NCBI GenBank assembly: GCA_965221835.1
Contig: OZ244916.1
Coordinates: 528,750-592,749, forward strand
Length of the DNA stretch: 64,000 nt
Direction: 5' to 3'
DNA from: Gammaproteobacteria bacterium
GTDB taxonomy: Bacteria; Pseudomonadota; Gammaproteobacteria; Tethybacterales; Persebacteraceae
The notes under the pieces were generated by a model. It did no database searches, was not told the origin of the DNA, and saw nothing but the letters and a program-made list of their open reading frames with translations. Of this stretch, positions 5,020-51,853 are shown piece after piece. A program made the translations under genes and the position numbers. The stretch's first letter is position 1; each line of letters opens with the position of its first letter.

Positions 5020-5059
5020 CGCCGCCTGCAATTTCGGCAAAATCTGATATAATTCCGAA

Positions 5060-5694: not shown

Positions 5695-5796
5695 CGCGAT
5701 TTTCCGCCATTCATAACCGGCGGAAAAAAGCCGCGTTTCGGGCGGGGAATCGGCAAATTGCCGCCGTCCGCCGCAAAAATCAGGTATAATTCCGAA

Positions 5797-6428: not shown

Positions 6429-6530
6429 CGCGATTTTTTGCCATTCATAACCGGCGGAAAAAAGCCGTGTTTCGGGCGGGAAATCGGCAAATTGCCGCCG
6501 TCCGCCGCGAAAATCTGATATAATTCCGAA

Positions 6531-7180: not shown

Positions 7181-7245
7181 CGCCCGTTTTTTGTCGCCCG
7201 AAAAACTTTAACTTGCGTTTAACTTGCGGAAATTCGCAAAAAAAT

Positions 7246-7272
7246 CCGTCCGCCGCAAAAATCAGGTATAAT
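7246..7272 (+). promoter_or_regulatory. promoter-like 27-mer CCGTCCGCCGCAAAAATCAGGTATAAT upstream of nuoG
   Basis: Identical 27-mer at 5764-5790 (upstream of TA copy 2). The -10 hexamer TATAAT is at 7267-7272. A related AAAATCAGGTATAATT occurs at 15217-15233, upstream of the 928-aa surface-protein gene. Confidence 0.5.
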
Positions 7273-7297
7273 TTGCCGATGAAAAAGGGGCATCGCC

Positions 7298-11449: not shown

Positions 11450-11451
11450 AT

Positions 11452-12519: not shown

Positions 12520-12521
12520 CG

Positions 12522-14982: not shown

Positions 14983-15066
14983 GCCGAGGTGGCGGAATTG
15001 GTAGACGCGCCGGACTCAAAATCCGGTGTCGGAAACGGCATGAGGGTTCGAGTCCCTCCTTCGGCA
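14983..15066 (+). tRNA. tRNA-Leu (anticodon CAA)
   Basis: GCCGAGGTGGCGGAATTGGTAGACGCG-CCGGA-CTCAAAA-TCCGG, a long variable arm, then GAGGGTTCGAGTCCCTC-CTTCGGC-A. Folded by hand into a cloverleaf. Closely resembles E. coli tRNA-Leu. Confidence 0.9.
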
Positions 15067-15070
15067 CCGC

Positions 15071-15144
<74 letters not shown>

Positions 15145-15284
15145 CGGTTTTGCGCATTCCGGCGAAACGCGGCGATTTTTTTCTTAAATTGATCGCCCCG
15201 ATTTTGCCATCGCGCCCAAAATCAGGTATAATTTCCGATATATTTTTCGAGGGGATTTTTGGGGGATTAATGGGAGTAAAAACG

Positions 15285-18068
15285 ATGAATAAATGGCAAA
15301 AAGTTATCGGCAAATCCGCCGCGTTTTTTCTTATCCTTTTCGGGAGCGGAATTGACGATGCGCATGCGTACGGCGCGGCAATACGCCTTGACGACGGAAG
15401 TTTTTCCATCGTGGCAAACTACGAATCCGAACAAATCGCACAAGATTCGGTTATCGCCGCTTGCACAGACACCGCGAATATCGAAAATCCGGAAAACGTA
15501 CAAAGATGCAGACCGTCGGCGATTGTGGACACTTTCAGCGATGAAGTATTTCTTTACGCACCTTTTGCGGACAGTTTCGGCAGAGGGGCGGACACTGAGG
15601 CGGCGGTGTATGACGCCATTGACGATTGCGTTGTAAATAGTTTTTTGTTTTCCTTCCTCCCCGACCCGTATCAGGCGTGTCAAGAGGCGGTTCTCGGGCT
15701 GGAATCGAGAGAGATTACGGTGATTGTTGACGCCGACGAAGGCACTACCCGCGTTCATCGGGTTGAGAATATATTGGCGAATAATAACCCGGCTTTCGCC
15801 CCGATTTTTTGCGGAGACGGCTCTGTTGCGGATGATATTTCCAGCAGCGTAGAAACGCTTGATGTTACGCAAATAGTCGGCGATACGAACAACGATGGCA
15901 CCATTTCCTTGGACCCGGCGGACGGCGAAATCACGACAATTCAGCGACAACTCACCGTTTTGATTCTCGGCACGATTACTGTTGAGGTGGCGGGACCGCT
16001 TTCTTATACCCCGAACTGCGACCGGGTGGATCCTGCTTGTGCCACTGGTACGACTCTCCAAGTTAGCAACAATACTTGCGTAGCAGATTCAACCGCTATG
16101 TGTCCGGACGGGCAACGAAGAGATCCCGTTAATAACGAATGCGTACTGCAGTGCGATGCGCATTTGGTGTTGCAACCGAATCCCGATAATCCCGGCAATT
16201 CGGGTAATGAAAATATGGCATGCTTTCCGCGAACGGCGGATTTGTGCGGGTATTGGGAAACTTTTGAAGCAAATCCGGCGGGGGTTGGCGGATTTTGCGT
16301 GCCGACAACACAGGCGGATTGCGAGGCGGACGGGCTTATATTAAAATACCGGTTTGGCGACAGCAGCAGAGAAGGGCGGGAATGTCTTCCGCCGATTCGC
16401 GAAGAATGCGTATTCGGGACAAGATTCGTGCCGGACGACCCCGCAGTTGCGGAAAATGATGCGGCGGCGGTCGGTCGTTGCGTTCCAATACAAGGCGCAC
16501 AAGATTGCGAAGAATATGAAAGATTCGACAATGGCGGTTGCATCCCCAGAAGTATGGAAAATTGTATGGACGATGAAGTATTTTCTCCGAGGTTAAACGA
16601 TGATGGTACACCGGCTAACAACGGCGGCGTTTGCATTTTTGCGGGCGATTTTTTGCTGACGACATCCGTCACGCCGGATTCCCACGAATACACTTCCGAT
16701 TTTTGCGATGAGGATTGGCAATCAAGATTTATATTAAGCAATGACGGGCAAAATGCGGCGGAAGTTTGCGAAATTCCCTTAGATTTGGGCGATTCATTGC
16801 AAATTACTGTGACAGTAACAGATACAATGGAGACGTTGACATTAAATTTGGGCGGAAACTTCCAATTTAGACCGGATGAGAATGGCAACGCCCGTGTGGA
16901 CGGATGTCTTATCCGGGAATCCGCCCATTTTTCCGGAATAGTACCTTGCAACAACCCGCGATTGTTCGGCGAAATCGGCGGATTTCCGCAAATGCCCCCC
17001 AGTTTTGTGCCGGGAGACAGATTAACGGTTGCGGTATCGCTAATGACAACGAACATAGGCACTACTAACGATGTCATATCCGCCATCCAAATCACTCACA
17101 ACAATCAAGAAATTGGTCGTGTTGAAATGCTGACTTGCGACGAAAATGAAGAGGCAATCAATGGTATGTGCGTATGCGGCAATGGATTTGAGCGTGAGGG
17201 CGGAGATGGCAGAAACGCATGCGTAGAAATCATGTGTGAAGCAAATGAAGTAGTAGACGAGCAAAATATGTGCGTATGCCAAAATGGATTTGATCGTGAA
17301 AATCCGGATGGCACCGGCGCATGCGTGAGAACCGGAACCGGGTGTGGCACAAATGAAGTGCCAAGCGGGAGTGCATGTATATGCCTTCCGGACCATAGCC
17401 GGGATAGCACCGGCGCATGCGTGAGAGACAGCGGCGGCGACACGGGTAATCGTCCGACACTTCCGACACCTCCGACAACAAGCACCGGTCCTGTTGTCGT
17501 TGATTTCCAAAGAGACACGGCGAAAGATTCGCAAGTTATCGCCGGTGCCGTTGTCGGCGGTTTTGCGGTTTTCTACGGAATGTCGTATTTTCTCGGCGGC
17601 GATATTTTATACACCCCCGATTTCGGCTATTCCGTCACCGAAAACGGCTACTCCATAAACGGCGGCGGACGGGCGTCTTTCCGCAAAGACGGATGGCATT
17701 TTTATTATTCCGCAAAACAAACAAATCGGGACGGCGAATTCGGCGATTTACGCTACGCCAGCGGCGGCAAATACACCGGAGATATATTTACGGCGGCGTT
17801 TTCCGAATCCGTCAGCGGCAAAACGGTGAATTATAATGTGTCATTGTCCGCCGATATTTCGGGCGGCGTTTGGAATATATCGCCCGTCTATCGCATGCGT
17901 TCCCGCTTTCACGAAGGCGAAACAACCACCCGCAACTCGCTGAATTTGCAAAGCGAATTCCGCTATAACGGCTGGCGAATCCGCTCCTCCGCCGGATTCC
18001 GGTGGCGACAAACAAACGAATTCGCCGACAGCGGCAAATTCCGCATAGACGCAATTCATCGTTTCTAA
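15285..18068 (+). CDS. secreted Cys-rich repeat protein with C-terminal beta-barrel-like anchor domain (family member 1)
   Basis: Track ORF 15108-18068 overlaps tRNA-Val, so it is trimmed to ATG 15285 (GGGAG 9 nt upstream; ATG 15270 is also possible). Signal peptide MNKWQKVIGKSAAFFLILFGSGIDDAHA. Three CxxNE...C(V/I)C...ACV modules. Hydrophobic VIAGAVVGGFAVFYGMSYFL. The last ~155 aa show an alternating pattern ending FRIDAIHRF. Confidence 0.8.
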   Translation: MNKWQKVIGKSAAFFLILFGSGIDDAHAYGAAIRLDDGSFSIVANYESEQIAQDSVIAACTDTANIENPENVQRCRPSAIVDTFSDEVFLYAPFADSFGRGADTEAAVYDAIDDCVVNSFLFSFLPDPYQACQEAVLGLESREITVIVDADEGTTRVHRVENILANNNPAFAPIFCGDGSVADDISSSVETLDVTQIVGDTNNDGTISLDPADGEITTIQRQLTVLILGTITVEVAGPLSYTPNCDRVDPACATGTTLQVSNNTCVADSTAMCPDGQRRDPVNNECVLQCDAHLVLQPNPDNPGNSGNENMACFPRTADLCGYWETFEANPAGVGGFCVPTTQADCEADGLILKYRFGDSSREGRECLPPIREECVFGTRFVPDDPAVAENDAAAVGRCVPIQGAQDCEEYERFDNGGCIPRSMENCMDDEVFSPRLNDDGTPANNGGVCIFAGDFLLTTSVTPDSHEYTSDFCDEDWQSRFILSNDGQNAAEVCEIPLDLGDSLQITVTVTDTMETLTLNLGGNFQFRPDENGNARVDGCLIRESAHFSGIVPCNNPRLFGEIGGFPQMPPSFVPGDRLTVAVSLMTTNIGTTNDVISAIQITHNNQEIGRVEMLTCDENEEAINGMCVCGNGFEREGGDGRNACVEIMCEANEVVDEQNMCVCQNGFDRENPDGTGACVRTGTGCGTNEVPSGSACICLPDHSRDSTGACVRDSGGDTGNRPTLPTPPTTSTGPVVVDFQRDTAKDSQVIAGAVVGGFAVFYGMSYFLGGDILYTPDFGYSVTENGYSINGGGRASFRKDGWHFYYSAKQTNRDGEFGDLRYASGGKYTGDIFTAAFSESVSGKTVNYNVSLSADISGGVWNISPVYRMRSRFHEGETTTRNSLNLQSEFRYNGWRIRSSAGFRWRQTNEFADSGKFRIDAIHRF

Positions 18069-22705: not shown

Positions 22706-24349
22706 CTATGCGGCGGGGCGGGCGGCGAGAACGCCGTCCAGCCAGCCGGGATTCATGTCGGGGACGGACGACAATAATAATTCGGTGTATTCGTGATGCG
22801 GCGGTGTAAAAATTTTATCGCGTTCGCCCGATTCCGCAACTTTTCCGTTGTGCATTACCGTCACTTCATCCGCAATCGCGCGCACCAACGAAATGTCGTG
22901 CGTGATAAAAAAATAACACAGCGAAAACTCGTCTTGCAATTTTTGCAATAAACGCAAAATTCCTTCTGCGACAAGTTGATCCAACGCCGAAGTAATTTCA
23001 TCGCAAATAATTAAACGCGGATTTGCCGCCAATGCGCGGGCGATGCAAACGCGTTGTTTTTGTCCGCCCGATAACTCATCAGGTGCGCGTTCCAAAAATT
23101 GTTCGGGCGGCAACTCTATCTGTTCCAAAAGTTCGCAAACGCGAGTATGCAATTTTTTGCCGGAAAGCCCGAGATAAAATTGCAGCGGTCGTCCGACAAT
23201 ATCGCGTACGCGATGACGCGGATTTAACGCAGTATCGGGCGTTTGATAAATCATCTGAATATTTTGCAATAAAGTTTTGTCGCGCGCCGTATAATGCGGC
23301 GGCAACAATTCGCCGTCCATTAAAATGCGTCCGGCGGAAGGCGGTAAAAGTCCGGCGATGCATCGCGCCAATGTGGATTTTCCCGAACCGGATTCGCCCA
23401 CGACAGCAGTCGTCCGCCCGCGATATAGCGACAACGAAACATCCGACAACGCGCGCGCATCGCCGTAATGCGCCGATATATTTTCCGCCCGCAAAAGCGG
23501 TTCTTCGGGCGGCGGCGGTTTCGCGATTTTTTGCATTTGTCGCACCGCCCACAACGATTTTGTATAATCGGCTTTCGGTGCGGAAAGTATTTCGCGGGTA
23601 TCGGCTTCTTCTACTTTTTTTCCGTCTTTTAGTACGAGAATGCGATTTGCCATTTGTGCGACAACTGCCAAATCGTGCGTGATATACAACGCCGCGGTTT
23701 TATATTCGCGCACAATATCGCGAATCGCGGCGAGTACTTCTATTTGCGTAGTGACATCCAACGCGGTAGTCGGTTCGTCAAAAACTATCATATCGGGGCG
23801 GCAAAGCATCGCCATCGCAGTCATCGCGCGTTGCAATTGTCCGCCGGAAACTTGATGCGGATAGCGAAATCCGATTTCGTCCGGCGAAGGCAGATGCAGT
23901 TTGCGATATAATGCGATTGCATCTGCATCCGCTTCGGCGCGCGATTTAATGCCGAATAATACCGCGCTTTCGCGGCATTGTTTTATGAGGCGGTGCGCGG
24001 GATTGAATGCTGCCGCCGCCGATTGTGCGATATAGGCGATTCGCGCACCGCGAAGTTTGCGGCGTTGTTCTTCGCTGCAACGAACGAGATTCGCGCCGTC
24101 AAATAAAACTTCGCCGCCGGTAATGCGACAACCATCGCGCGTATAACCCATTCCCGCCAATCCCAGCGTGGATTTTCCCGCCCCCGATTCGCCGATAAGT
24201 CCCAACACTTCACCGCGCCGCAAAGACAAACTAACGCCGCGAATAATAGGCGTCGTTTCATCACCGCCATCAATATGCAAATCATTAATTTGCAACAACG
24301 GCGCCCCCAAATCAACATTTTTCATTTTGTCATCATCACTAATTTTCAT
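22706..24349 (-). CDS. ABC transporter ATP-binding protein, duplicated ATPase (peptide/nickel type, YejF/DppDF-fusion-like)
   Basis: 547 aa with two Walker A motifs (GESGAGKST, GESGSGKST), two LSGGQ signatures (VSGGQLQR, LSGGQKQR) and two Walker B motifs (IVFDEPTTALD, IICDEITSALD). Confidence 0.9.
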   Translation of the reverse strand: MKISDDDKMKNVDLGAPLLQINDLHIDGGDETTPIIRGVSLSLRRGEVLGLIGESGAGKSTLGLAGMGYTRDGCRITGGEVLFDGANLVRCSEEQRRKLRGARIAYIAQSAAAAFNPAHRLIKQCRESAVLFGIKSRAEADADAIALYRKLHLPSPDEIGFRYPHQVSGGQLQRAMTAMAMLCRPDMIVFDEPTTALDVTTQIEVLAAIRDIVREYKTAALYITHDLAVVAQMANRILVLKDGKKVEEADTREILSAPKADYTKSLWAVRQMQKIAKPPPPEEPLLRAENISAHYGDARALSDVSLSLYRGRTTAVVGESGSGKSTLARCIAGLLPPSAGRILMDGELLPPHYTARDKTLLQNIQMIYQTPDTALNPRHRVRDIVGRPLQFYLGLSGKKLHTRVCELLEQIELPPEQFLERAPDELSGGQKQRVCIARALAANPRLIICDEITSALDQLVAEGILRLLQKLQDEFSLCYFFITHDISLVRAIADEVTVMHNGKVAESGERDKIFTPPHHEYTELLLSSVPDMNPGWLDGVLAARPAA

Positions 24350-24474
24350 ACTATATGCCTAACTATAACAAATCCGGGCGGCAAAAACATTTTCGCCCGA
24401 AATGTCGCGAAAAACTAATTCGCAAAAATGGTTGACAGATACTTTTTATTTTATAATGCCGCCTGATATAGATT

Positions 24475-24551
24475 TGCAAGACAGCCCCGATTGCCGGGCG
24501 CTGTCTGAATACAATACCTCCGGGGAAACGGGCAGCGGAATCTTTCTTGCA
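24475..24551 (+). ncRNA. candidate structured RNA motif, copy 1 (class unknown)
   Basis: Closing stem TGCAAGA/TCTTGCA encloses CCCCGATTGCCGGG..CGCTG-TCTGA..ACCT.CGGGGAA..GGG-CAGCG.ATCTT. Homologous to 27055-27134 with compensatory stem changes. Begins 17 nt after a TATAAT (24452-24457). The strand assignment is tentative. Confidence 0.4.
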
Positions 24552-24558
24552 GATGTTA

Positions 24559-25725
24559 TCAAACGGACGCAAGTTCGCGTTCCACCAGACGCGTCCAATA
24601 GGCGGCGCCAACGGGTAGAATGTCATCGTTAAAATCAAACCGGGGATTATGCAATGCGGGGCTGTCTTTGCCGTTGCCGATGAACATAAAACAGCCGGGT
24701 TTTTCTTTGAGCATCCGTCCGAAATCTTCCGAAAACATCATGCGCGGGCAGTCGCCGTCAACGCGGCTTTCACCGGCGATTTCGCGGGCGGCGGCAATTC
24801 CGGCGCGCGTTTCGGCGGCGGTGTTTGCAGTTATGCCGAAGCAATGTTGATACGAAAAATCGGCGACCGTCGCGCGGTGCGCATCGCAAACGCCGTCCGC
24901 GATTCGTTTAATTGCGTTGCGAATTTCGCCGCGAGTCGCATCGGAATAGGCGCGCGCGTCTCCGCGCAATATCACGCGTCCGGGGATGACATTTTGCGCG
25001 CCGTCCGTTTGGAATTCGGTTACCGAAACTACTCCGCCGAGGGAGGGATTAATCACCCGCGACACCACGGTTTGCAGCGCGCCCACAATTTCGGCGCCGG
25101 CAACTAATGCGTCCGCGCACAAATGCGGCAACGCCGCATGTCCGCCGCGACCTTTGACGGTAATTTGAAAATGATCTTCGCATGCCATCACCGGTCCGGT
25201 GCGAGTGGCAAAATGTCCGGCGGGCAGGGAGGGCAAATTGTGCATCCCGAATATCCGCTGCATTGGAAATTTCCGCAATAATCCGTCGTTCAGCATGGCT
25301 TCCGCGCCCAACCCGTTTTCTTCATCGGGTTGAAAAATAAAAACCGCAGAGCCGTCAAATTTTCCGTCCGCCGCCAATTGCCGCGCCGCGCCCAGCAACA
25401 TCGCCGCGTGACCATCGTGTCCGCAGGCATGCATTTTGCCTTCATAAACGGAGCGATGGCGAAACCGGGATTCTTCGGCAATCGGCAGCGCGTCCAACTC
25501 CGCGCGCAAACCGATGGCGCGCTTTTTTGTGCCGCGGCGCAAAACGCCGACAACGCCGACATCGGCAACGCGGCGGGGATTCGCGCCGCATTCGCGCAAA
25601 ACATTTTCCACTATCGCGGCGGTTCGTTCCACCGCGAATCCCGTTTCCGGATGGCGATGAAAATCCCGCCGCCAGACGGTCATTTGCCGCCGCAACTGCG
25701 CGGCGATTCGCGGAGGCGAAACCAT
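24559..25725 (-). CDS. M20-family amidohydrolase (hippurate hydrolase / N-acyl-amino-acid amidohydrolase-like)
   Basis: Trimmed to MVSPPRIAAQL...WRRDFHRHPETGF. Contains MHACGHDGH, IFQPDEE and HNPRFDFND. Confidence 0.85.
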   Translation of the reverse strand: MVSPPRIAAQLRRQMTVWRRDFHRHPETGFAVERTAAIVENVLRECGANPRRVADVGVVGVLRRGTKKRAIGLRAELDALPIAEESRFRHRSVYEGKMHACGHDGHAAMLLGAARQLAADGKFDGSAVFIFQPDEENGLGAEAMLNDGLLRKFPMQRIFGMHNLPSLPAGHFATRTGPVMACEDHFQITVKGRGGHAALPHLCADALVAGAEIVGALQTVVSRVINPSLGGVVSVTEFQTDGAQNVIPGRVILRGDARAYSDATRGEIRNAIKRIADGVCDAHRATVADFSYQHCFGITANTAAETRAGIAAAREIAGESRVDGDCPRMMFSEDFGRMLKEKPGCFMFIGNGKDSPALHNPRFDFNDDILPVGAAYWTRLVERELASV

Positions 25726-25736
25726 TCGTTTTTGAA

Positions 25737-26762
25737 TCAACGCATCGGCGGCGCGTACAAAATGCCTCCCCGCGACCACAGCGCATTCGGACTGCCCGCG
25801 CGCGGAATGCCGATGGGCGTATTTTCGCCCACATTGGCTTCGTAAATTTCCCCGTAGTTGCCGACTTGCCGAATGACCTGATAAAAACAATCATCCGCCA
25901 ATTTATCGCTCAGAAATTCGCATAAGCCGCTTTCCACCCCCAACAAACGCCGTATTTGCGGATTGTCGGATTTTTTCATTTCCGCCGCGTTTTGCGAAGA
26001 CACGCCCAATTCTTCGGCGTTAAGCATCCCGTAAATTGTCCACCGCACGATATTCGCCCACACATCGTCGCCCTGCCGCACCACCGGCCCCAAAGGCTCT
26101 TTGGAAATGGTTTCGGGCAAAATCACCGCCGCCGACTGATCGCGCAACTCGCTGCGAATTGCCGCCAGTTGCGATTTGTCGGAAGTCAAAACATCGCAGG
26201 ATTCTTTCTCAAATGCTTCGCGGGTTTGCGCCGTATTGCCGTACGATTTGGGGGTAAAGGTCATGCCGTTGGTGCGAAAATAATCGGCGAGATTGCCTTC
26301 CGAAGTCGTTCCCGCCAAAACGCAGACGCGCGCGCCGTCCAGATCTTTGGCGCTGTCCGCCCCCAGCGATTTGCGGACCAAAAATCCCTGCCCGTCAATG
26401 AAGTTGTAATAGGTGAAATTCATTCCCAGCGAACCGTCGCGGTTGAGCGTGTGCGTCGTCGCAAACGGCAAAACATCCACTTCGCCCGCCACCAGCGCGG
26501 TGAGCCCCGATTTGAAGTCCATCGCGACAAATCGCGCCTTTTCGGCATCGCCAAACACCATCGCGGCGATCGCGCGGCAAGTATCGCTGTCCAAACCCGA
26601 ATATCTGCCGTCATCGCCGACCGCGGAAAAACCGGCGATAGTTCCCAGCGCGCCGCATTTTACTTCGCCGCGCGCCAGCACTTCTTCCAGCAAACCCGCC
26701 TGGGCGGCGTTCGCCGACATCGCTATTGCCGCCATCGCAATTCCCGTAATCGCTTTTTTCAT
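25737..26762 (-). CDS. amino-acid ABC transporter substrate-binding protein (AapJ/BztA-like)
   Basis: 341 aa. Signal peptide MKKAITGIAMAAIAMSANAAQA. Contains KCGALGTIAGFS..DDGRYSGLDSDTCRAIAAMVFGDAEK and a C-terminal LWSRGGILYAPPMR. Confidence 0.85.
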   Translation of the reverse strand: MKKAITGIAMAAIAMSANAAQAGLLEEVLARGEVKCGALGTIAGFSAVGDDGRYSGLDSDTCRAIAAMVFGDAEKARFVAMDFKSGLTALVAGEVDVLPFATTHTLNRDGSLGMNFTYYNFIDGQGFLVRKSLGADSAKDLDGARVCVLAGTTSEGNLADYFRTNGMTFTPKSYGNTAQTREAFEKESCDVLTSDKSQLAAIRSELRDQSAAVILPETISKEPLGPVVRQGDDVWANIVRWTIYGMLNAEELGVSSQNAAEMKKSDNPQIRRLLGVESGLCEFLSDKLADDCFYQVIRQVGNYGEIYEANVGENTPIGIPRAGSPNALWSRGGILYAPPMR

Positions 26763-26930
26763 CGTTCATTACTCCTTGTTGCGCCAACAAAATGATGGCG
26801 TTTTTAGAGTTTAATGCAATTTACAGAAAAAGTTGAGAAATTTGCGAAAAATTTTGCCGCATTGTTGCTTTTCGTAATTCTCCGATTCACCTCCGATTCC
26901 ATTCTCGCGTTCGCAAGAATGAAAGAAAAA

Positions 26931-26963
26931 CCGGCGGAGATTCCATTTCCCCGCCGTTTTTTT
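26931..26963 (+). terminator. Rho-independent terminator cassette (copy 1, one stem mismatch)
   Basis: GGCGGAG-ATTCCATTT-CCCCGCC followed by T7. The same hairpin family recurs at 27996, 29584 and 32800. Confidence 0.5.
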
Positions 26964-27009
26964 GCGAGTTTTTTTCGGCAAGCAAAAGTTCGCATTCGCC
27001 GACGGTTTT

Positions 27010-27038
27010 TTGCATTTTCGGGCGGGATATGTTATACT
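27010..27038 (+). promoter_or_regulatory. sigma70-like promoter with conserved spacer box (TTGCAT-N17-TATACT)
   Basis: -35 TTGCAT at 27010-27015, a 17-nt spacer containing TTCGGGCGG, and -10 TATACT at 27033-27038. The box TTCGGGCGG..TATACTTTCGC recurs at 48537-48563 and 62380-62407. Confidence 0.55.
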
Positions 27039-27054
27039 TTCGCCCGAGTTGTTT

Positions 27055-27134
27055 GTGAAGTTCCCCCGATTGCCGGGGGTGCCGTCTGATAGAACACCTG
27101 CGGGGAATGGGCGGCGGTATCTTTACAACTTCAC
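27055..27134 (+). ncRNA. candidate structured RNA motif / 5' leader, copy 2 (class unknown)
   Basis: Closing stem GTGAAGTT/AACTTCAC, inner helix TGCCG/CGGCG, and the same conserved single-stranded blocks as copy 1. Begins 16 nt after the TATACT and ends 68 nt before the lipoprotein ATG at 27203. Confidence 0.45.
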
Positions 27135-27202
27135 GATACAACTCAACGCCCGGCGGTGTCGGGCATCGTGCGGGCGATTTCCCGTTATTAACCTGAAAGG
27201 AA

Positions 27203-27604
27203 ATGAAAATGAAAATTAAAACTATTCTTTTGCCGCTGTTTGCGGTTTTGTTGGCGGGATGCGGCGGTGGTCCCGCACCCGGGCATTTTGTAAAACCGAA
27301 TACATCGGCGGATTATGGACTTTCCTGCGATGCTATACAAGGAGAGATTCATGCGAACGACACACAACTTCGTCAAGCACAAGCGGGAGGGGTAATAAGT
27401 GGCTTTTGCAGTTTCAATAAGGAAGCGTGTTCCCGTGATATTCGGGCTCGCAACAATGTGTTGCAGGGATTGTTGTACCAGAAAGGGTGCGTGAATCCGA
27501 ATGCTGCCGGTGCGGGTGCGAATTCGGGTACGCAACAGCCCGAATCAAAAGAAAAATCGCGAGTGATTATCTGCAACGATGACCAAACATGCGTTGTTGA
27601 ATAA
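27203..27604 (+). CDS. small lipoprotein, paralog A
   Basis: MKMKIKTILLPLFAVLLAGC has the lipobox LLAGC. Conserved C-terminus SKEKSRVIICNDDQTCVVE. The start may be ATG 27209. Confidence 0.7.
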   Translation: MKMKIKTILLPLFAVLLAGCGGGPAPGHFVKPNTSADYGLSCDAIQGEIHANDTQLRQAQAGGVISGFCSFNKEACSRDIRARNNVLQGLLYQKGCVNPNAAGAGANSGTQQPESKEKSRVIICNDDQTCVVE

Positions 27605-27614
27605 TGGGAAAATA

Positions 27615-27980
27615 ATGAAAAAAGCGATATTAATTTTCTTATGCCCGGGATTGTTTGGATGTGCGGGTGCTTTTGTTGAGGCACGCCAGAATTCTGACTA
27701 CGCGCTCACTTGTGATTTGATTGATTACGAGATTATTGAAAACGAATCTGAGATTCTTCGGGGATACGATATTCCCGGAGTTCTCGGCACGGGCAACAAT
27801 ACTTGGATATTAATGCAAAGACGGGATCTTCAAGCAAGATTGAATGTTCTGCATCAACTTCGTAGCGAAAAGAAATGTGGACAAAATACGAACAAACCTG
27901 CGGCATCTAATAATCCCGATTCTAAAGAAAAATCACGCATTATTATTTGCAAAGACGACCAAACCTGCATTATTGAGTAG
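27615..27980 (+). CDS. small lipoprotein, paralog B
   Basis: Trimmed to MKKAILIFLCPGLFGC (lipobox-like). Shares SDYALTCD.I..EI and the C-terminus SKEKSRIIICKDDQTCIIE with paralog A. Confidence 0.65.
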   Translation: MKKAILIFLCPGLFGCAGAFVEARQNSDYALTCDLIDYEIIENESEILRGYDIPGVLGTGNNTWILMQRRDLQARLNVLHQLRSEKKCGQNTNKPAASNNPDSKEKSRIIICKDDQTCIIE

Positions 27981-27995
27981 ACAGAAAACAAAAAA

Positions 27996-28029
27996 CCGGC
28001 GGGGGATTCCGTGTCCCCGCCGTTTTTTT
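27996..28029 (+). terminator. Rho-independent terminator cassette (copy 2)
   Basis: GGCGGGG-GATTCCGTGT-CCCCGCC (7-bp stem) plus T7. Confidence 0.7.
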
Positions 28030-28228
28030 GCGGGGTTTTTCGGCGGCGAAAATGCGTAAATTTATGAATTCCCGTGTTTGCGGCAAATTACAGAACTGTT
28101 ATTGCAAATTACAGAACTGTAAAATGGAATGCTAATGTAAAAACTTTCGCAATTCGGGCGGAAGTTTGTATTCCCCGCCGTTTTTTCGTATAATCTTATT
28201 TTTTACAAAACCGAAAGGGAAAATCATT

Positions 28229-29578
28229 ATGAAAATCAAGACCGTTCTTTTGCCGCTTTTCGCCGCCGTTTTGTTTGCGATTTCGCCGCCCGCTTTTGCT
28301 GGAGAAATTCCATTACTACTCCCTTGTGATGATATAGATAGAAAACACAATAAAAAGCATTATTCAAGAAAAGGAGACAACTCCTCCCACGGCGTGCTTA
28401 TTAGCATGGCTAAATGCTCTGACTCAGAAAATGAAAGAAGGCGGCTTTTGCAAATTGTTTCGGATAGAGGCATTCCTGCAGGAAAATATCTTTTGGCTTG
28501 GCTTGAGTATTCAGAAAATTGGGATGTAGAAGAAACAACAGATTTAGAAAATCTGAAAAAATCTTATGATTTATTTATGGAAACTTTGGAAAGTATTCAA
28601 GATCAGCCCGACTACCCTTATGTAAGTGAAATTGGTGATAAAGAAGTATATAATGACAGTTACTATGAGATGCGATTTGGAATCTTACCCCATTCTTGTA
28701 TTTCTAAAAGTTATGCACTATACGAAATGCAACTTCAAGTACCAATTGAAACTATCAATCAAATCAATAGATACGAAGATCTTCAAAAACAAATTTGCGG
28801 TAGTTTGGATGAAAACAATCAACCATTAGAAACTGCTATCAGTTATAGAAATAAAATTAAAGAACGTGTATTAGAAAAAAGAGGACATAGAATCAGCGGC
28901 TTTGATGAAAGATATGAAAGAAATTTCAATAAATTAGATAATGAAGAACTTGTAAAATTTTTTAGAGATTTGTTATCTTTTGCATTAAATCCAACAGATA
29001 ATACTGATACACAATCAAAATCGGAATATGCGGCGGCGGCGTTTGCGGCGATGTCGGAAAATGAACAGGCGGAGTTTTGTATTTCAATTCGCAGTCCGCA
29101 AAGACCGTGTTTTTGTACAACTGGAATTGTCTGCACGGAAAATTATTGCATAGATAGACCGAATTGCATTGAACCCGAAGATGTGGATTATGGGCATTTG
29201 CTAAACGATTATACGCCGTCCGAAAAATCGGCGGAAGAATCAGCGGCGGAAGAACCGGCGAACGAATCGGCGACAGATGAATCGGTTGCGGACGAATCGG
29301 TGAACGAATCGGCGGCGGAAGAATCACCGGCGGAAGAACCGGCGGAAGAAATAGCGGAAGAACCGGCGGAACCGGAAACAAAAACCGTATGCCGTTCTTT
29401 TGCAAACGGCATAAATCCCGACAATACGGAATGGGGAAGAATTGGTGCAAGCGAAGCGGGAGTAGGCGAAACGGAATATGCGGCTATCCGTGCGGCAATA
29501 AGAATATGCGAAAATGACGGCTTAACAGAATGTCAAACCGATTTGGAAGTCAAATGCGAGGAAGTTGCGGTACAATAA
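28229..29578 (+). CDS. secreted hypothetical protein: AT-rich unique N-terminal part plus shared acidic/Cys-rich C-terminal module
   Basis: Trimmed to MKIKTVLLPLFAAVLFAISPPAFA. The N-terminal ~270 aa have no homolog I recognise (18/60 G+C at 28321-28380). The C-terminal ~175 aa are near-identical to the C-terminus of 31610-32794. Confidence 0.7.
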   Translation: MKIKTVLLPLFAAVLFAISPPAFAGEIPLLLPCDDIDRKHNKKHYSRKGDNSSHGVLISMAKCSDSENERRRLLQIVSDRGIPAGKYLLAWLEYSENWDVEETTDLENLKKSYDLFMETLESIQDQPDYPYVSEIGDKEVYNDSYYEMRFGILPHSCISKSYALYEMQLQVPIETINQINRYEDLQKQICGSLDENNQPLETAISYRNKIKERVLEKRGHRISGFDERYERNFNKLDNEELVKFFRDLLSFALNPTDNTDTQSKSEYAAAAFAAMSENEQAEFCISIRSPQRPCFCTTGIVCTENYCIDRPNCIEPEDVDYGHLLNDYTPSEKSAEESAAEEPANESATDESVADESVNESAAEESPAEEPAEEIAEEPAEPETKTVCRSFANGINPDNTEWGRIGASEAGVGETEYAAIRAAIRICENDGLTECQTDLEVKCEEVAVQ

Positions 29579-29617
29579 CAAAACCGGCAGGGATTCCATT
29601 TCCCCGCCGTTTTTTTA
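29046..29617 (+). repeat. ~570-bp dispersed repeat, copy 1 (3' coding module plus terminator)
   Basis: Near-identical to 32262-32832 at the nucleotide level, with small indels in the GAAGAA/CCGGCG acidic tract. Confidence 0.85.
29584..29616 (+). terminator. Rho-independent terminator cassette (copy 3)
   Basis: GGCAGGG-ATTCCATTT-CCCCGCC (one mismatch) plus T7. Confidence 0.6.
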
Positions 29618-29640
29618 CAAAACCAAAAGGAGAAATTATA

Positions 29641-30777
29641 ATGAAAATCAAATCTATTATTTTATCGCTGTTTGCGGTTTTTGCGTTGGCAGTTTCGCCC
29701 GTTTCTTTCGCCGATAAATGCTCGTTATGCGGTCCTGCCTTTAATGGCGACATTGCTGAAATTAATCGTCTGCTTGCTGGCGGGGCGAATGTGGATGCGA
29801 CAAGTGAGACCGGCTGGACGGCTTTGATGTTTGCGACAATACAGGGACATGCCGAAGTTACCGAGATTCTGTTGGCGGCGGGAGCGGATGTGAATATGGC
29901 GGATAATGGCGGTGGGACGGCTTTGTATAATGCGGTAATACGAAGACATGCCGAAGTTGCGAAAATGCTCATAGCGGCGGGTGCAAATCCAAATGCGGTG
30001 GGTAAAGACGGTATAACGAGTTTGATAATGGCGGCAAGAAACGGATATACCGAAGTTGCCGAGATTCTGTTGGCGGCGGGGGCGAATCCGAATGCGGCAG
30101 AAGAGGATGGCGAGACAGTTTTGATAGCGGCGGCAAGAAACGGACATGCCGAAGTTGCGAAAATTCTCATATCGGCGGGGGCAAATGTGAATGTGGCGAG
30201 TAAGTCCGGCTGGACGGCTTTGATAGCAGCGGGATTCGGACATGCCGAAGTTGTTAAGATTCTGTTGTCGGCGGGGGCGAATCCGAATGCGGAGGATAAT
30301 GGCGGCTGGACGGCTTTGATAGTGGCGGCAAGATACGGACATGCCGAAGTTGCGAAAGTTCTAATTGCGGCGGGGGCGAATGTGGATGCGGCGAGTAATG
30401 ACGGCAAGACGGCTTTGTATTTGGCGGAAGATAACGGACATGCCGAAATTATTAATATCTTGGAATGTTATAAGTCCGATTTAACTTCGCTTCCGCCCGA
30501 AGTGTATGCCGACCGAAAACTGGTAGAAGTGGAACGGCAAATCGGCGAGGGCGATTATGCGGCGGCGGCGTTGACGATGGGATTTATCGCTTGTTATAGC
30601 GAAAAAAATGATGTCGCCCTACCGACAGAGTTTCATTTTAAGAATGCGCAGATATTGCAACTTGCCGGCGACAATAAGAGGGCGTTGACGGCGATTACCG
30701 CCTATTTGAAGGAAGCGGGGCGGGAAGGCGAAAACTATTTGGCGGCATTGCAAATGTTGGATGAGTTGGAAAAATGA
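29641..30777 (+). CDS. secreted ankyrin-repeat protein (about 8 repeats) with helical C-terminal region
   Basis: Trimmed to MKIKSIILSLFAVFALAVSPVSFA. Repeated G.TAL..A...GH.EV...LL.AGAN.N units. Confidence 0.9.
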   Translation: MKIKSIILSLFAVFALAVSPVSFADKCSLCGPAFNGDIAEINRLLAGGANVDATSETGWTALMFATIQGHAEVTEILLAAGADVNMADNGGGTALYNAVIRRHAEVAKMLIAAGANPNAVGKDGITSLIMAARNGYTEVAEILLAAGANPNAAEEDGETVLIAAARNGHAEVAKILISAGANVNVASKSGWTALIAAGFGHAEVVKILLSAGANPNAEDNGGWTALIVAARYGHAEVAKVLIAAGANVDAASNDGKTALYLAEDNGHAEIINILECYKSDLTSLPPEVYADRKLVEVERQIGEGDYAAAALTMGFIACYSEKNDVALPTEFHFKNAQILQLAGDNKRALTAITAYLKEAGREGENYLAALQMLDELEK

Positions 30778-31562
30778 TGAACAAAACAGCGTTTATCGTT
30801 TTCATATTATCATCGTTTCTTTTTGCATTTCCTGCATCGGCGGCGGGAAAGGCGAGAAGCAGTTTGCTGTTGCTGATTGATTCGTCCGGCAGTATGGGCA
30901 ATTCTATCAGTAGCACGAATCCGGAAATAAAAATAGAAGCCGCAAAAGCGGCGGCACAGGCGGCAGTTGCACAGGCGACACAAAAGGGATTGGTAGAAGT
31001 GGCGGTTTTGGCATTTGAGGGCGGATGCGAAAATCCCGTGCCGAGATATTTGGATTTTACGACTGACACGGACGATTTGATTGATTTTATTTGGTCTTTG
31101 CAGCCGGGCGGCGGAACGCCGATGGCAGATGCGGTTTTGTTCGCGAACGATTTTATGAAACGCAACAGCGTTCCCGAAGCGGTATCGCAATTAATTGTTT
31201 TGCTTGCGGACGGGCAAAATGGTTGCGGTGATGTAAAAGAGGCGATGCGGACTTTGCAAAATAGCGGGGTTATATTTCGGCATGAAACGGTCGGATTCGG
31301 TATTGAACCGCTTTCGCAGGCGGCGGAAGATTTGCAGCATATCGCCGAAAAAACGGGTGGCATATATCATCATGCGAATAATGCGAATCAATTGGCGAAT
31401 GTCTTTATGGAGTTGGTGAATACGCTGACGGTTTTGGATATTATCGGAAAGACCGGCGGAATTAGTGCAACGATGAATATATCAAATCAGAGAAATACCG
31501 TGCAAATCCAAAATAAAAAAGGGATTACACGGGAATTGCTTGACGGATTGAAGTTGCCGTAA
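30774..31562 (+). CDS. secreted von Willebrand factor type A (vWA) domain protein
   Basis: 262 aa. Signal peptide MMNKTAFIVFILSSFLFAFPASA. MIDAS motif LLLIDSSGSMG, then GGGTPMADA and VLLADGQNGCGD. Its ATG overlaps the ankyrin gene stop (ATGA). Confidence 0.85.
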   Translation: MMNKTAFIVFILSSFLFAFPASAAGKARSSLLLLIDSSGSMGNSISSTNPEIKIEAAKAAAQAAVAQATQKGLVEVAVLAFEGGCENPVPRYLDFTTDTDDLIDFIWSLQPGGGTPMADAVLFANDFMKRNSVPEAVSQLIVLLADGQNGCGDVKEAMRTLQNSGVIFRHETVGFGIEPLSQAAEDLQHIAEKTGGIYHHANNANQLANVFMELVNTLTVLDIIGKTGGISATMNISNQRNTVQIQNKKGITRELLDGLKLP

Positions 31563-31609
31563 ATTTTGTATAATCTCGTTTTTTTTACAAAACCGAAAGG
31601 GGAATTATT

Positions 31610-32794
31610 ATGAAAATCAAATCTATTATTTTGCCGTTGTTTGCGGTTTTTGCGTTGGCAGTTTCGCCCGTTGCGGTTGCCTCTGAATGCCCGTTATGCA
31701 AACCCGCCAAAAACGGCGATATTGCTGAAGTTAAGCGTTTGCTTGACGGCGGGGCGAATCCGAATGCGGTGTCTTATGACGGCTTTTCTACGGCTTTGAT
31801 GTATGCGACATTTTTCGGACATGCCGAAATTGCGAAAATACTGTTGTCGGCGGGGGCGAATCCGAATGCGGCGATTATTAACGGCGAGACGGTTTTGATA
31901 TTGGCGACAATCAAAGGACATGCCGAAATTGCGAAAATGTTGTTTTCGGCGGGGGCTAATCTGGATTTGGCAGACAACAACGGCGTGACGGCTTTGATGA
32001 TTGCGACAGAGAAAGGACATGCTGAATTTGTAAAAGTGTTATTAGAAAGCGGGGCAAATCCGAATGCGGTGGATAATGACGGCTGGACGGCTTTGGAGAT
32101 TGCGGAACATTATGGACATACCGAAGTTATTTCTATTTTGCAGAATTTTCGCCCGTCTATTTCGCCGGAGGATATTGAGTTTGCGCCGTTTGATGAAAAT
32201 AACATAGATTTGCAGGATGAAATTATTAAGGATAAATCAGAATATGCCTTTCGTCAATTTTCGGCGATGTCGGAAAATGAACAGGCGGAGTTTTGTATTT
32301 CAATTCGCAGTCCGCAAAGACCATGTTTTTGTACAACGGGAATTGTCTGCACGAAAAATTATTGCATAGACAGACCGAATTGCGTTGAACCCGAAGATGC
32401 AGATTACAAACATTTGCTAAATGATTATACGCCGTCCGAAAAATCGGCGGAAGAATCAGCGGCGGAAGAACCGACAAACGAATCGGCAGCAGATGAATCG
32501 TCAGCGGAAGAACCGGCGGAAGAACCGGCGGCGGAAGAATCACCGGCAGAAGAACCGGCGGAAGAAATAGCGGAAGAACCGGCGGAACCAGAGACGAAAA
32601 CGGTATGCCGTGCTTTTGCAAACGGCATAAACCCCGACAATACGCAATGGGGAAGAATTGGTGCAAGCGAAGCGGGAGTGGGCGAAACGGAATATGCCGC
32701 TATCCGTGCGGCAATAAGAATATGCGAAAATGACGGCTTAACAGAATGTCAAACCGATTTGGAAGTTGAATGCGAGGAAGTTTTGGTACAATAA
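31610..32794 (+). CDS. secreted ankyrin-repeat protein (about 4-5 repeats) fused to the shared acidic/Cys-rich C-terminal module
   Basis: 394 aa. Signal peptide MKIKSIILPLFAVFALAVSPVAVA. Ankyrin units. The C-terminus from SAMSENEQAEFCISIRSPQRPCFC to ...ECEEVLVQ duplicates that of 28229-29578. Confidence 0.9.
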   Translation: MKIKSIILPLFAVFALAVSPVAVASECPLCKPAKNGDIAEVKRLLDGGANPNAVSYDGFSTALMYATFFGHAEIAKILLSAGANPNAAIINGETVLILATIKGHAEIAKMLFSAGANLDLADNNGVTALMIATEKGHAEFVKVLLESGANPNAVDNDGWTALEIAEHYGHTEVISILQNFRPSISPEDIEFAPFDENNIDLQDEIIKDKSEYAFRQFSAMSENEQAEFCISIRSPQRPCFCTTGIVCTKNYCIDRPNCVEPEDADYKHLLNDYTPSEKSAEESAAEEPTNESAADESSAEEPAEEPAAEESPAEEPAEEIAEEPAEPETKTVCRAFANGINPDNTQWGRIGASEAGVGETEYAAIRAAIRICENDGLTECQTDLEVECEEVLVQ

Positions 32795-32832
32795 CAAAAC
32801 CGGCGGGGATTCCATTTCCCCGCCGTTTTTTT
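32262..32832 (+). repeat. ~570-bp dispersed repeat, copy 2 (3' coding module plus terminator)
   Basis: See 29046-29617. Confidence 0.85.
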
Positions 32833-32833
32833 T
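32800..32833 (+). terminator. Rho-independent terminator cassette (copy 4)
   Basis: GGCGGGG-ATTCCATTT-CCCCGCC (perfect 7-bp stem, 9-nt loop) plus T8. Confidence 0.75.
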
Positions 32834-32947
32834 GCGGGGATTTTCGGCAATTCGGGCGGGAGTTTGTATTCGTTGTTGGTTTGCTGTATAATCGGTGCAG
32901 GGCGGGGGGATGGCTTTTCGCTGATATTCAAATGAGGAGATAATACG

Positions 32948-33895
32948 ATGAAGAAAAATTTTATTAATGCTATTTTTGCTTGCACTATTTTGGTGATGCC
33001 GTTCGCACCGGCGAACGCGGCACCGGAAAACTGCCGCAAACCGCGTTTTTCCAATGTCGGATGGACGGACACCATCGCGACAACTTCCACGGCGAAGGCG
33101 ATTTTGTCGGCGATAGGGTATGAGCCGGTGGAAATAAATCTTTCTATTCCCATTACTTATGCGTCCATGAAAAATGGCGATATTGATATTTATCTCGCCG
33201 ATTGGGAACCGAGTATGCAAAGCGATCGCGCACCTTATGTGGATGCCGGCGATGTGGAAGTGCTGACTCCGGCGGCGATTACCGGGGCGAAATATACCAT
33301 TGCTGTGCCGAAATATGTCGCCGATGGCGGAGTGCGAGATTTCGCCGACATTGCCGCACATGCGGAAAAGTTTGACCGCAAGTTTTACGGTTTGGAACCT
33401 GGTGATTCGGGCGGCGGATTGATTTTGGATATGATTTCCAAAAACGCGTTCGGACTCGGCGAATTTGAACTTGTCGAATCCAGCGAACAGGGAATGTTGT
33501 CGCATGTCAATCGGTCGGTTAAACGCGGCGAATGGGTTGCTTTTCTTGCATGGGAACCGCATCCGATGAATATTGAATACGACCTCGTTTATCTTACCGG
33601 CGGCGATGATTATTTTGGTCCCGATTTGGGCGGTGCGGAAATTTTTATTAATGTGCGACGCGGGTATCGGGAGGAATGCGAAAATCTTGGCGTGTTTTTG
33701 GAAAATCTTAAATTCTCTCTCGCGATGATGAACGAAGTGATGGGAGGAATTTTGGAAAACGAACAGGAGCCGGAAGAAGTTGCGTTGGCGTGGATGAAAA
33801 ACAATCCGGCGGATGTAGATAAATGGCTTGCGGGCGTTTCCACATTTGACGGCGGAGATGCGCGCGCGGAATTCCGAAAAGTACACGGATTTTAA
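32948..33895 (+). CDS. quaternary-amine (glycine betaine/choline/carnitine-type) ABC substrate-binding protein, orphan
   Basis: 315 aa with a signal peptide. FSNVGWTDTIATTSTAKAILSAIGYEPVEINLSIPITYASMKNGDIDIYLADWEPS matches ProX/ChoX-type SBPs. No adjacent permease or ATPase. Confidence 0.8.
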   Translation: MKKNFINAIFACTILVMPFAPANAAPENCRKPRFSNVGWTDTIATTSTAKAILSAIGYEPVEINLSIPITYASMKNGDIDIYLADWEPSMQSDRAPYVDAGDVEVLTPAAITGAKYTIAVPKYVADGGVRDFADIAAHAEKFDRKFYGLEPGDSGGGLILDMISKNAFGLGEFELVESSEQGMLSHVNRSVKRGEWVAFLAWEPHPMNIEYDLVYLTGGDDYFGPDLGGAEIFINVRRGYREECENLGVFLENLKFSLAMMNEVMGGILENEQEPEEVALAWMKNNPADVDKWLAGVSTFDGGDARAEFRKVHGF

Positions 33896-51824: not shown

Positions 51825-51853
51825 TTTTTTGCGGACGGCGGGCGAAATGACGA

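Follow-up and report, generated by a model that had tools for sequence, protein, structure and literature searches.

A strain-variable hotspot for predicted exported ankyrin-repeat, vWA and cysteine-rich proteins in a putative AqS2/Tethybacterales bacterium

Gene content of the locus

The locus described here lies at positions 27203-32794 of a 64-kb stretch of bacterial DNA (the window, taken at its full length), where the list of open reading frames (ORFs) shows six consecutive plus-strand genes. These encode two small lipoproteins (lipoA and lipoB), an orphan protein of 449 amino acids (orph449), an ankyrin-repeat protein with eight repeats (Ank8), a vWA protein and a second ankyrin protein (Ank4C). 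The site varies among near-identical strains, and its products may be directed at an animal host.

lipoA (27203-27604) encodes a small Cys-rich lipoprotein of 133 aa, or of 131 aa from an alternative MKIK start at 27209, with the lipobox LAGC. lipoB (27615-27980) encodes a 121-aa paralogue with the lipobox-like sequence LFGC. The two are 39-42% identical and have a common C-terminal motif, SKEKSR(V/I)IIC(N/K)DDQTC. A preliminary description of this DNA, made from the sequence and its ORFs, had recognized the paralogous pair, and only the start that it implied for lipoB is slightly off; the ATG at 27615 gives MKKAILIFLCPGLFGC. lipoA has no match in Pfam, NCBIfam or PADLOC, and lipoB has none in Pfam.

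orph449 (28229-29578) encodes a predicted exported protein with a helical N-terminal domain, of low G+C content (GC 0.35), and a C-terminal Cys-rich module. The protein has no Pfam match, also at E<=10 with its subdomains searched separately, and no meaningful sequence match in the PDB. An AlphaFold2 (AF2) model from a shallow alignment of 17 sequences reached a predicted local distance difference test (pLDDT) value of 41 and was not used for a fold search. The 36 homologues all fall inside one narrow clade, and the family is also found at other loci of the same genomes, beside further ankyrin genes (L081-L083). In L081 and L083 (6852-9747) the copy lies just downstream of Cu-oxidase/cytochrome c (NirK-like), FGE-sulfatase and SCO1 genes, and downstream of it come MarR and several Peptidase_S8 genes of very large size.

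Ank8 (29641-30777) has a signal peptide, a CxLC N-cap, eight ankyrin repeats and a 104-aa helical tail. Ank4C (31610-32794) has the same signal peptide and N-cap arrangement, about four repeats, and at 32258-32794 the Cys-rich module that also ends orph449. Pfam Ank families match Ank8 with E 4.5e-54 (Ank_2 181 bits, Ank 175 bits) and Ank4C with E 4e-37 (Ank_2 127 bits, Ank 107 bits). In both, tandem 33-aa repeats above the Pfam cut-offs correspond to a 99-nt periodicity in the DNA. The AF2 model of Ank8 (pLDDT 80) contains eight helix pairs, one per repeat, and five further helices in the tail, where pLDDT is 70-82; its closest folds are DARPin and ankyrin structures.

The vWA gene (30774-31562) encodes a predicted exported protein that matches VWA_2 with 54.7 bits (cut-off 27) and VWA with 47 bits (cut-off 23.8). 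Its metal-ion-dependent adhesion site (MIDAS; D-x-S-x-S, T, D) is intact. Among 20 homologues D36, S40, T115 and D146 are invariant, S38 is at least 90% conserved, and a Cys pair is also conserved. A sequence search of the PDB gave weak matches only. The preliminary description had assigned the eight-repeat ankyrin protein, the MIDAS vWA protein and the second ankyrin protein correctly. Its view of the set as modular and of eukaryotic-like or adhesion type is also supported.

By Pfam, the island is flanked by an SBP_bac_3 amino-acid binding protein on the minus strand and by a betaine-type OpuAC binding protein, both of which had been named before. GC is 0.35-0.50 in the island and ~0.52-0.57 in the flanks. 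Rfam finds only two tRNAs in the window, at 14983-15145, and nothing credible in 24300-33000. PADLOC, run on the locus proteins, gave only the Ank-containing models PDC-M72A, Ankyrin and MzaA, aligned over the ankyrin repeats, and a TerY match at E 0.006, and thus no defence-system membership beyond generic repeats. Exact look-ups of the window's OpuAC and P0017 sequences returned no record.

Export signals

Signal peptides were assigned to the six proteins by a rule-based check of n-region charge, Kyte-Doolittle core and cleavage site. All six have one to three Lys/Arg within the first eight residues and a hydrophobic core whose Kyte-Doolittle mean over 10 residues is 2.65-3.07. This check bears out the signal peptides proposed earlier for all six genes. 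The four non-lipoproteins have predicted signal peptidase I sites at AFA|G, SFA|D, ASA|A and AVA|S. Measured against the pattern [LVI][ASTVI][GAS]C, the LAGC of lipoA is a canonical lipobox, and the LFGC of lipoB fits a relaxed pattern only, having F at position -2. The number of Cys residues is even in every mature protein (6, 4, 14, 4, 2 and 12), which fits disulfide-bonded exported proteins. From these features we infer that all six are Sec-exported across the inner membrane.

The ankyrin arrays begin with a C-x-L-C motif directly after the signal-peptide cleavage site, at 29713-29730 and 31682-31699 in the window and also in the sister contigs L093 and L096 (see below). Examples are DKCSLCGPA, SECPLCKPA and AECPLCEPA. 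The motif recurs inside the L096 protein L096_2636, where a second ankyrin block begins, and could be a disulfide or metal site.

Repeated cassettes

Repeat analysis and pattern searches identify four kinds of repeated element in the island: a 5' cassette, a terminator hairpin, the 99-nt ankyrin periodicity and a C-terminal module. The repeats are 90-575 nt long with 80-95% identity. Within the window, the 5' and terminator cassettes are confined to the island.

The 5' cassette, best seen at 28184-28287 on the plus strand, combines a TATAAT box, a T-rich leader, an AAGGGA ribosome-binding site (RBS) and the coding sequence of an MKIK... signal peptide. Further plus-strand copies lie at 27190-27249, 29611-29699 and 31564-31668 (repeat families D6, D7 and D17, and a pattern search). 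The four copies, against 0 expected by chance, precede four genes. A scan for sigma-70 promoters gave 12 sites against 10.2 expected in shuffled sequence, which is no better than chance, and its best match was rejected as the promoter of Ank8, whose start codon it overlaps.

The terminator hairpin has three to four plus-strand copies, again with 0 expected by chance. One follows lipoB (27997-28029), one lies between orph449 and Ank8 (29585-29616), 25 nt ahead of the Ank8 start codon, and one marks the right edge of the variable segment (32801-32832). An orphan copy at 26929-26963 has one mismatch and no plus-strand gene upstream, and is terminator-like on the minus strand too. A string similar to GCCGTCTGA at 27081 suggested a Neisseria-type DNA uptake sequence (DUS), and no DUS variant was found.

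The C-terminal module is ~575 nt long. Its first copy (29042-29578, plus strand) encodes a subdomain with 6 Cys and one of ~65 aa with 4 Cys, joined by an acidic (SAEEP)n linker, and has 91% DNA identity to 32258-32557. At the protein level the last 200 aa of orph449 and Ank4C are 83% identical, and the module is almost invariant in 17 family members. Searched separately, its subdomains have no Pfam match at E<=10.

A strain-variable segment

Sister contigs were found through the OpuAC ortholog (P0173). There are six, from two samples (ENA analyses ERZ25072152 and ERZ25070530; coverage labels 133x-630x), and the window is a seventh allele. The flanks are collinear in all six at 98-99% DNA identity (~98.7%), with DctPQM, AdoHcyase and an ABC ATPase on the left and OpuAC, Zn-ADH, ABC permeases, GDSL, SBP_5, ACP, KAS and SMC on the right. 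The content in between differs in each.

The window allele consists of lipoA, lipoB, orph449, Ank8 with its tail, vWA and Ank4C. In L092, lipoA and lipoB are followed by a lipoprotein with ankyrin repeats and an anchored ankyrin protein that has only the last C-terminal subdomain. L093 has lipoA, lipoB, orph449 and a hybrid ankyrin gene, and L097 has lipoA, lipoB and an orph449 that frameshifts have broken into three ORFs and pseudogenised. L096 encodes a lipoprotein with a coiled coil, a DUF4189 protein preceded by the MKIK signal cassette described above, and an ankyrin protein. lipoA is 99-99.7% conserved in L092, L093 and L097, and lipoA and lipoB together are 99-100% conserved wherever present.

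L094, a contig labelled circular (1,999,211 bp), has an ankyrin gene, a gene for a 596-aa protein with an HExxH motif and ankyrin repeats, and an Ank4C ortholog in which a transmembrane anchor replaces the signal peptide. The 596-aa protein (6688-8478) appears to be exported and joins a metalloprotease-like N-terminal region (HEIAHHLNAH), which has no Pfam match, to about ten ankyrin repeats. L095 has no ankyrin genes. At 5675-8506 of this contig, from an abundant strain (coverage label 367x), the exported proteins give way to an EcoRI-type methylase, a type IV restriction protein of the GmrSD/HNH kind and an orphan of 211 aa, so the hotspot also receives defence genes.

The variable segment extends from 24380 to ~32850 and is thus wider than the island of 27203-32833 delimited in the preliminary description, which holds as its right-hand part. 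The left part (24380-26981, minus strand) encodes an M20 peptidase (24559-25683/25890) and the SBP_bac_3 protein (25737-26762). The window, L092 and L093 have this part and L094-L097 lack it, which is why the segment is drawn leftwards to 24380. In L096 and L097 the junction is exactly 24379|26982. Two direct copies of a ~190-nt leader element, 71% identical, bound the M20/SBP_bac_3 segment at 24380 and 26982, and recombination between them would account for its deletion in the sister strains.

The leader element has a conserved core of ~65 nt (24440-24550 and 27040-27135) with the consensus CCCCGATTGCCGGG.GC.GTCTGA...CGGGGAA.GGGC.GCGG.ATCTTT. On the minus strand each core lies upstream of a transporter gene (the ABC ATPase and SBP_bac_3, respectively) and is followed by a terminator-like hairpin. 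One compensatory pair is seen in the core, and Rfam has no match for it. The element may be a cis-regulatory leader.

Most breakpoints between alleles fall on cassettes. Collinearity with L092 stops at 28056, just past the terminator that follows lipoB, and for L093, L095 and L096 collinearity with the window resumes at 32820-32855, at the right-hand terminator. Another breakpoint, at 31652, lies just after the signal-peptide cassette, and one at 30123 lies within an ankyrin repeat. The L097 allele can be explained by a crossover between the two C-terminal modules that deletes the sequence between them. The preliminary description had proposed repeated cassettes and expansion in situ. The cassettes are there, but expansion in place is too simple, since the content differs in each sister strain and cassettes are also found elsewhere (L081-L083).

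Substitution rates also differ between the segment and its surroundings. By the Nei-Gojobori method, ten flanking genes have dN ~0-0.005, dS 0.02-0.07 and dN/dS 0-0.15, and orph449 and Ank4C have dN 0.05-0.10, dS 0.13-0.25 and dN/dS ~0.4. Flank values set against those of the two island genes are dN ~0.003 and dN/dS 0-0.12. These two genes thus evolve faster than the flanks.

The tail-vWA gene pair

The stop codon of Ank8 and the start codon of the vWA gene overlap by 4 nt (ATGA), and the two genes probably form one operon. The tail of Ank8 (30463-30774) is a TPR-like five-helix module and is a candidate partner for the vWA protein. The 104-aa domain has no Pfam match at E<=10 and no meaningful sequence match in the PDB, and a fold search with the Ank8 model was dominated by DARPins and uninformative on the tail. 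A word-indexed homologue search with the tail scored four candidates and gave two matches; an exhaustive profile search was hence made and recovered an unannotated family of 722 clusters at E<=1e-3.

Members of this family usually carry the tail domain directly behind a signal peptide. It may be N- or C-terminal and is fused to Ank, FGE-sulfatase or coiled-coil regions. Among 127 proteins, 42 have FGE-sulfatase, about 11 have Ank and 19 have weak TPR matches, and a few each carry PG_binding, PDZ, PPC, LRR or OmpA domains.

A hidden Markov model of the tail was run against all fetched loci encoding a close vWA relative, counting tail genes within 2 kb on the same strand. Of the 11 loci with enough flanking sequence for a judgement, which come mostly from sponge metagenomes, 10 have a tail gene beside the vWA gene (the window, L084/85, L086, L098, L099, L100, L102, L103, L104 and L105); four contigs too short for judgement are not counted among the 11. 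L106 is the only judgeable locus that has a vWA gene and lacks a tail gene. Distant vWA domains in proteins of more than 1000 aa have no tail gene nearby.

The pair is retained with different partners. In MAG_seacave_91, a metagenome-assembled genome (MAG) from a marine cave, and in a second assembly, a tail 70% identical to that of Ank8 follows a Cys-rich coiled-coil protein without ankyrin repeats, and the tail gene again overlaps the start of the vWA gene, here 80% identical. On a 1.7 Mb contig of another organism the tail forms the N-terminus of an ankyrin protein with 16 repeats, and a vWA gene of 62% identity follows just downstream. The vWA homologues are 55-65% identical across genomes with GC 0.33-0.64, and many have a DUF4189 extension. 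The Ank8-vWA pair therefore appears, on comparative sequence grounds, to belong to a gene pair conserved across unrelated lineages and not to be a product of local duplication; local expansion, proposed for the island as a whole, does not account for these two genes.

In L098 (another organism, GC 0.40) an Exo_endo_phos (EEP) nuclease/phosphatase-family gene at 5086-5997 lies between the tail-Ank and vWA genes. This arrangement suggests that further cargo types travel with the tail-vWA module.

Lineage and habitat

The contig that contains the window is 1,984,335 bp long, in a genome of ~2 Mb. By OpuAC, the nearest genomes are MAG_seacave_91 (85% identity) and MAG_seacave_22 (69%), and the vWA protein of MAG_seacave_91 is 80% identical. 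Both are classified as c__Gammaproteobacteria; o__AqS2; f__AqS2; g__JAHRAH01 (PMC12954392, supplementary table). The GTDB order AqS2 corresponds to the Tethybacterales, which are sponge symbionts of broad host range with genomes of 1-2.3 Mb (PMC8546597). The organism most likely belongs to AqS2/Tethybacterales.

The unique genes of one Tethybacterales symbiont include one for an ankyrin protein and one for a VWA protein (PMC8546597), and an AqS2/Tethybacterales MAG is enriched in Ank (PMC12625764). In the latter study, 37% of the eukaryotic-like proteins of sponge-associated MAGs have signal peptides, and the gene clusters for such proteins occur in variable contexts. The nearest nine metagenome matches to the vWA protein (49-70% identity) point the same way, as eight of the nine come from sponge metagenomes, of Petrosia, Sarcotragus, Aplysina and a sponge from the Okinawa Trough. 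The ninth (VSKX01) has no known source, and none comes from a seawater assembly deposited in the same study. The preliminary description had held that conservation of the island in free-living relatives would speak against its view of the locus. In the relative from the cave sediment and seawater MAGs, OpuAC is preceded by TRAP and BKACE genes, and there is no island at the locus (L001), so this objection does not arise.

Relation to known systems

The island belongs to an already known kind, the clusters of exported eukaryotic-like proteins of sponge-associated bacteria. As far as the accounts go in Nguyen et al. 2014 (via bioRxiv 10.1101/608950), PMC8546597 and PMC12625764, the exported ankyrins of sponge symbionts have the same combination of a Sec signal and an ankyrin array and come from a related lineage. 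Set against those accounts, the present locus differs in being a syntenic hotspot with seven alleles among strains that are ~98.7% identical and with defined recombination cassettes, and in one ankyrin protein being tied to a vWA partner through a dedicated tail domain, a tie at the level of the genes. As far as checked, the strain-resolved allelic series at one syntenic site and the definition of its cassettes go beyond published descriptions. The tail-vWA gene pair, with its unannotated tail family, is possibly a new element.

The ANKp protein of Ankyphages, known from sponge viromes, is likewise a short ankyrin protein; it has a signal peptide at its N-terminus, lacks a transmembrane domain, and has been proposed to be secreted and to dampen eukaryotic phagocytosis. 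The locus described here, however, is chromosomal, carries no phage genes and lacks close relatives in IMG/VR. The ankyrin effectors of Legionella and Coxiella are likewise bacterial ankyrin-repeat proteins used against eukaryotic cells, but they are delivered by the Dot/Icm type IV secretion system (T4SS) through C-terminal signals, whereas the proteins here have Sec-type N-terminal signals and the window has no T4SS genes. NCBIfam equivalogs for Legionella-type ankyrin effector families score 25-109 bits against cut-offs of 450-1400, which places the window proteins outside them.

The BatA/BatB operons of Bacteroides and Leptospira, associated with aerotolerance, also encode two envelope proteins side by side, one with a MIDAS vWA domain and one with TPR-type helical repeats. 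The vWA proteins of Bat have a membrane anchor and are encoded in a five-gene operon; the one here is predicted to be soluble and exported, with a signal peptide that looks cleavable, and its partner would be a single portable ~100-aa tail fused to variable cargo. The vWA protein scores 35.3 bits with the NCBIfam BatA model, against a cut-off of 380.

DUF4189 proteins (Rv1813c, XAC2611) resemble the Cys-rich C-terminal subdomain in being small exported disulfide-stabilised domains. A DUF4189 lobe has the order beta-beta-alpha-beta, and a low-confidence model of the last 65 aa of orph449/Ank4C shows the same order. The WACN motif, however, is absent from the orph449/Ank4C C-terminus, where at most one lobe is present. 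Pfam gives no match at E<=10 to DUF4189 (PF13827), and hhalign gives a probability of 3.9% over 19 columns.

Possible host-directed function and alternative explanations

The locus is probably the window strain's allele of a strain-variable recombination hotspot for exported modular proteins that are most likely host-directed, in a member of AqS2/Tethybacterales. The hotspot would store modular genes for Sec-exported proteins that are cut by signal peptidase I or lipidated at the lipobox and that fold with disulfides in the periplasm. New alleles would arise by homologous recombination between the cassettes, namely the 5' leader/RBS/signal peptide, the 99-nt ankyrin repeats, the Cys-rich C-terminal module and the terminator hairpin, leaving co-occurring strains with different repertoires. 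In the periplasm or at the cell surface, the MIDAS of the vWA protein may bind the TPR-like tail of Ank8 and so dock the ankyrin array as an exchangeable cargo domain, with other cargo in other organisms. Some of the proteins may reach the host in vesicles, through a secretion system encoded elsewhere, or by release inside the phagosome. There the exported ankyrin proteins would most likely act on the animal host, either to evade phagocytosis or to mark the cell as resident, as has been shown for other sponge-symbiont ankyrins. In sponge systems, secreted ankyrin proteins reduce phagocytosis, by the account of Nguyen et al. 2014 that is cited in bioRxiv 10.1101/608950.

Several points weigh against this reading. 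The nearest named genomes are of o__AqS2, but MAG_seacave_91 and MAG_seacave_22 were binned from marine-cave sediment and seawater (PMC12954392) and not from sponge tissue. No secretion-system family is matched among ~40 large ORFs of the window, in agreement with the preliminary description, and a route beyond the periplasm is thus not evident from the neighbourhood. The dN/dS of ~0.4 indicates relaxed and not positive selection, and gene conversion between paralogues may inflate it. With orph449 pseudogenised in L097 and no ankyrin genes in L095, no single gene of the set is required. The putative tail-vWA interaction is drawn from gene neighbourhood.

Some of the same observations would suit a housekeeping role in the bacterium's own envelope, with the proteins acting not on a host but in the periplasm, where they would assist assembly, serve as chaperones or form a vWA/TPR complex like that of Bat. 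The ankyrin protein AnkB of Pseudomonas aeruginosa is reportedly such an assembly or chaperone-type periplasmic factor. The six proteins have only Sec signals with no dedicated secretion system nearby, BatA is the best NCBIfam match to the vWA protein, and the domains fused to most tail proteins are enzymatic or related to peptidoglycan (FGE-sulfatase in 42 of 127, PG_binding, OmpA). The BatA match is nevertheless far below its cut-off, and the vWA protein has no membrane anchor. Presence/absence and full reshuffling among strains ~98.7% identical are hard to reconcile with housekeeping, pseudogenisation in L097 does not fit it, and the vWA subfamily is strongly enriched in sponge metagenomes, all of which makes this role unlikely. 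Alternatively, the locus could serve surface variation or kin recognition and have been shaped by phages, by predators or by bacterial neighbours, and not by the animal host, its proteins being receptor decoys, or exclusion factors like the periplasmic DUF4189 protein XAC2611. All seven alleles differ, as under frequency-dependent selection, L095 has restriction/defence genes at the same site, L096 has a DUF4189 protein and vWA relatives are fused to DUF4189. A DUF4189 protein reportedly mediates kin protection in Xanthomonas (bioRxiv 10.64898/2026.05.09.723464). Yet the PADLOC matches are generic Ank matches only, the Cys-rich subdomain is not significantly DUF4189-like by Pfam or hhalign, and no T4SS genes are seen in the window. 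To our knowledge, ankyrin arrays have no established role as phage receptors. We regard this explanation as somewhat more doubtful still than housekeeping.

Low GC in the island, phage-encoded secreted ankyrins in sponge viromes, and a vWA protein that stays 55-65% identical across lineages of very different GC, suggesting transfer, would all suit a horizontally acquired mobile island, or an Ankyphage-type prophage remnant, that brought in secreted ankyrin genes. By ORF list, Pfam and tRNA scan, however, no integrase, transposase, adjacent tRNA or phage gene is found at the locus, scans of viral contigs (IMG/VR) gave generic Ank matches at 38% identity and nothing for vWA, and the breakpoints lie on internal cassettes and not on att-like ends, so that this origin seems highly improbable. 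Chimeric assembly of mixed strains across the cassettes, or decay of non-functional genes, could in principle mimic variability, given the length and identity of the repeats, the co-occurrence of several strains in one sample and the frameshifts in L097. But the contigs are long, have coverage labels of 133x-630x, include one labelled circular and come from two samples; the window ORFs are intact, lipoA and lipoB are almost fully conserved, and the C-terminal module hardly varies. An artefact is thus very unlikely, and a hotspot for host-directed exported proteins remains the reading that we prefer.

Other features of the window

Two paralogous large Cys-rich proteins, of 986 aa (15108-18068, plus strand) and 505 aa (49124-50641, plus strand), have no Pfam or NCBIfam match. 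The first has a signal peptide (MNKWQKV...). They have a common C-terminal region of ~150 aa ending in ...YRF or ...HRF, like an outer-membrane beta-barrel, and are candidates for additional surface or host-facing proteins.

The nuo operon is interrupted. A low-GC gene for a 250-aa orphan (3235-3987, minus strand) follows nuoF (1914-3218), and between nuoF and nuoG (7298-9589) lie three tandem copies, 94-99% identical with a period of 734 nt, of a two-gene unit (5039-7191, plus strand). The unit encodes proteins of ~125 aa and 88 aa, the latter of which, on our reading, resembles a RelE/ParE-type toxin. On the minus strand, the long ORFs at 4727-5710 and 5680-6444 are likely to be spurious. 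After nuoH (9532-10644), the place of nuoI-N is taken by genes within 10730-13355 for a NERD nuclease, a protein with a metallo-beta-lactamase fold and a folP-like pterin-binding protein.

At 50925-53284 a BKACE gene is followed by a 3-hydroxyacyl-CoA dehydrogenase-thioesterase fusion, which is presumably a cluster for carnitine-type catabolism. Along with the betaine-type binding protein OpuAC, this cluster would fit the use of host-derived quaternary amines.

Biological implications

Exported ankyrins are the leading candidates for the means by which sponge symbionts escape being eaten by a bacteria-feeding host. The locus offers a natural allelic series, with seven alleles on near-identical backgrounds, one of them free of ankyrin genes, and the frequencies of these alleles could be compared with host individual, tissue location and transmission. 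The cassettes explain how a repertoire can change fast. The tail-vWA pairing provides a concrete protein-protein hypothesis, and the tail family of 722 clusters could be given a Pfam model.

A wider possibility, put forward tentatively, is that the tail and the MIDAS vWA protein form an undescribed extracytoplasmic docking system, widespread in sponge-associated bacteria of many lineages, with the hotspot serving as a strain 'barcode'. If true, a portable tag of ~100 aa, TPR-like in structure, would be bound by a single conserved vWA protein, which would thereby display or activate interchangeable cargo, such as ankyrin arrays and domains of the FGE-sulfatase-like, PDZ, LRR or peptidoglycan-binding kind. 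This 'barcode', made up of host-facing proteins, would then be kept by frequency-dependent selection within a single host.

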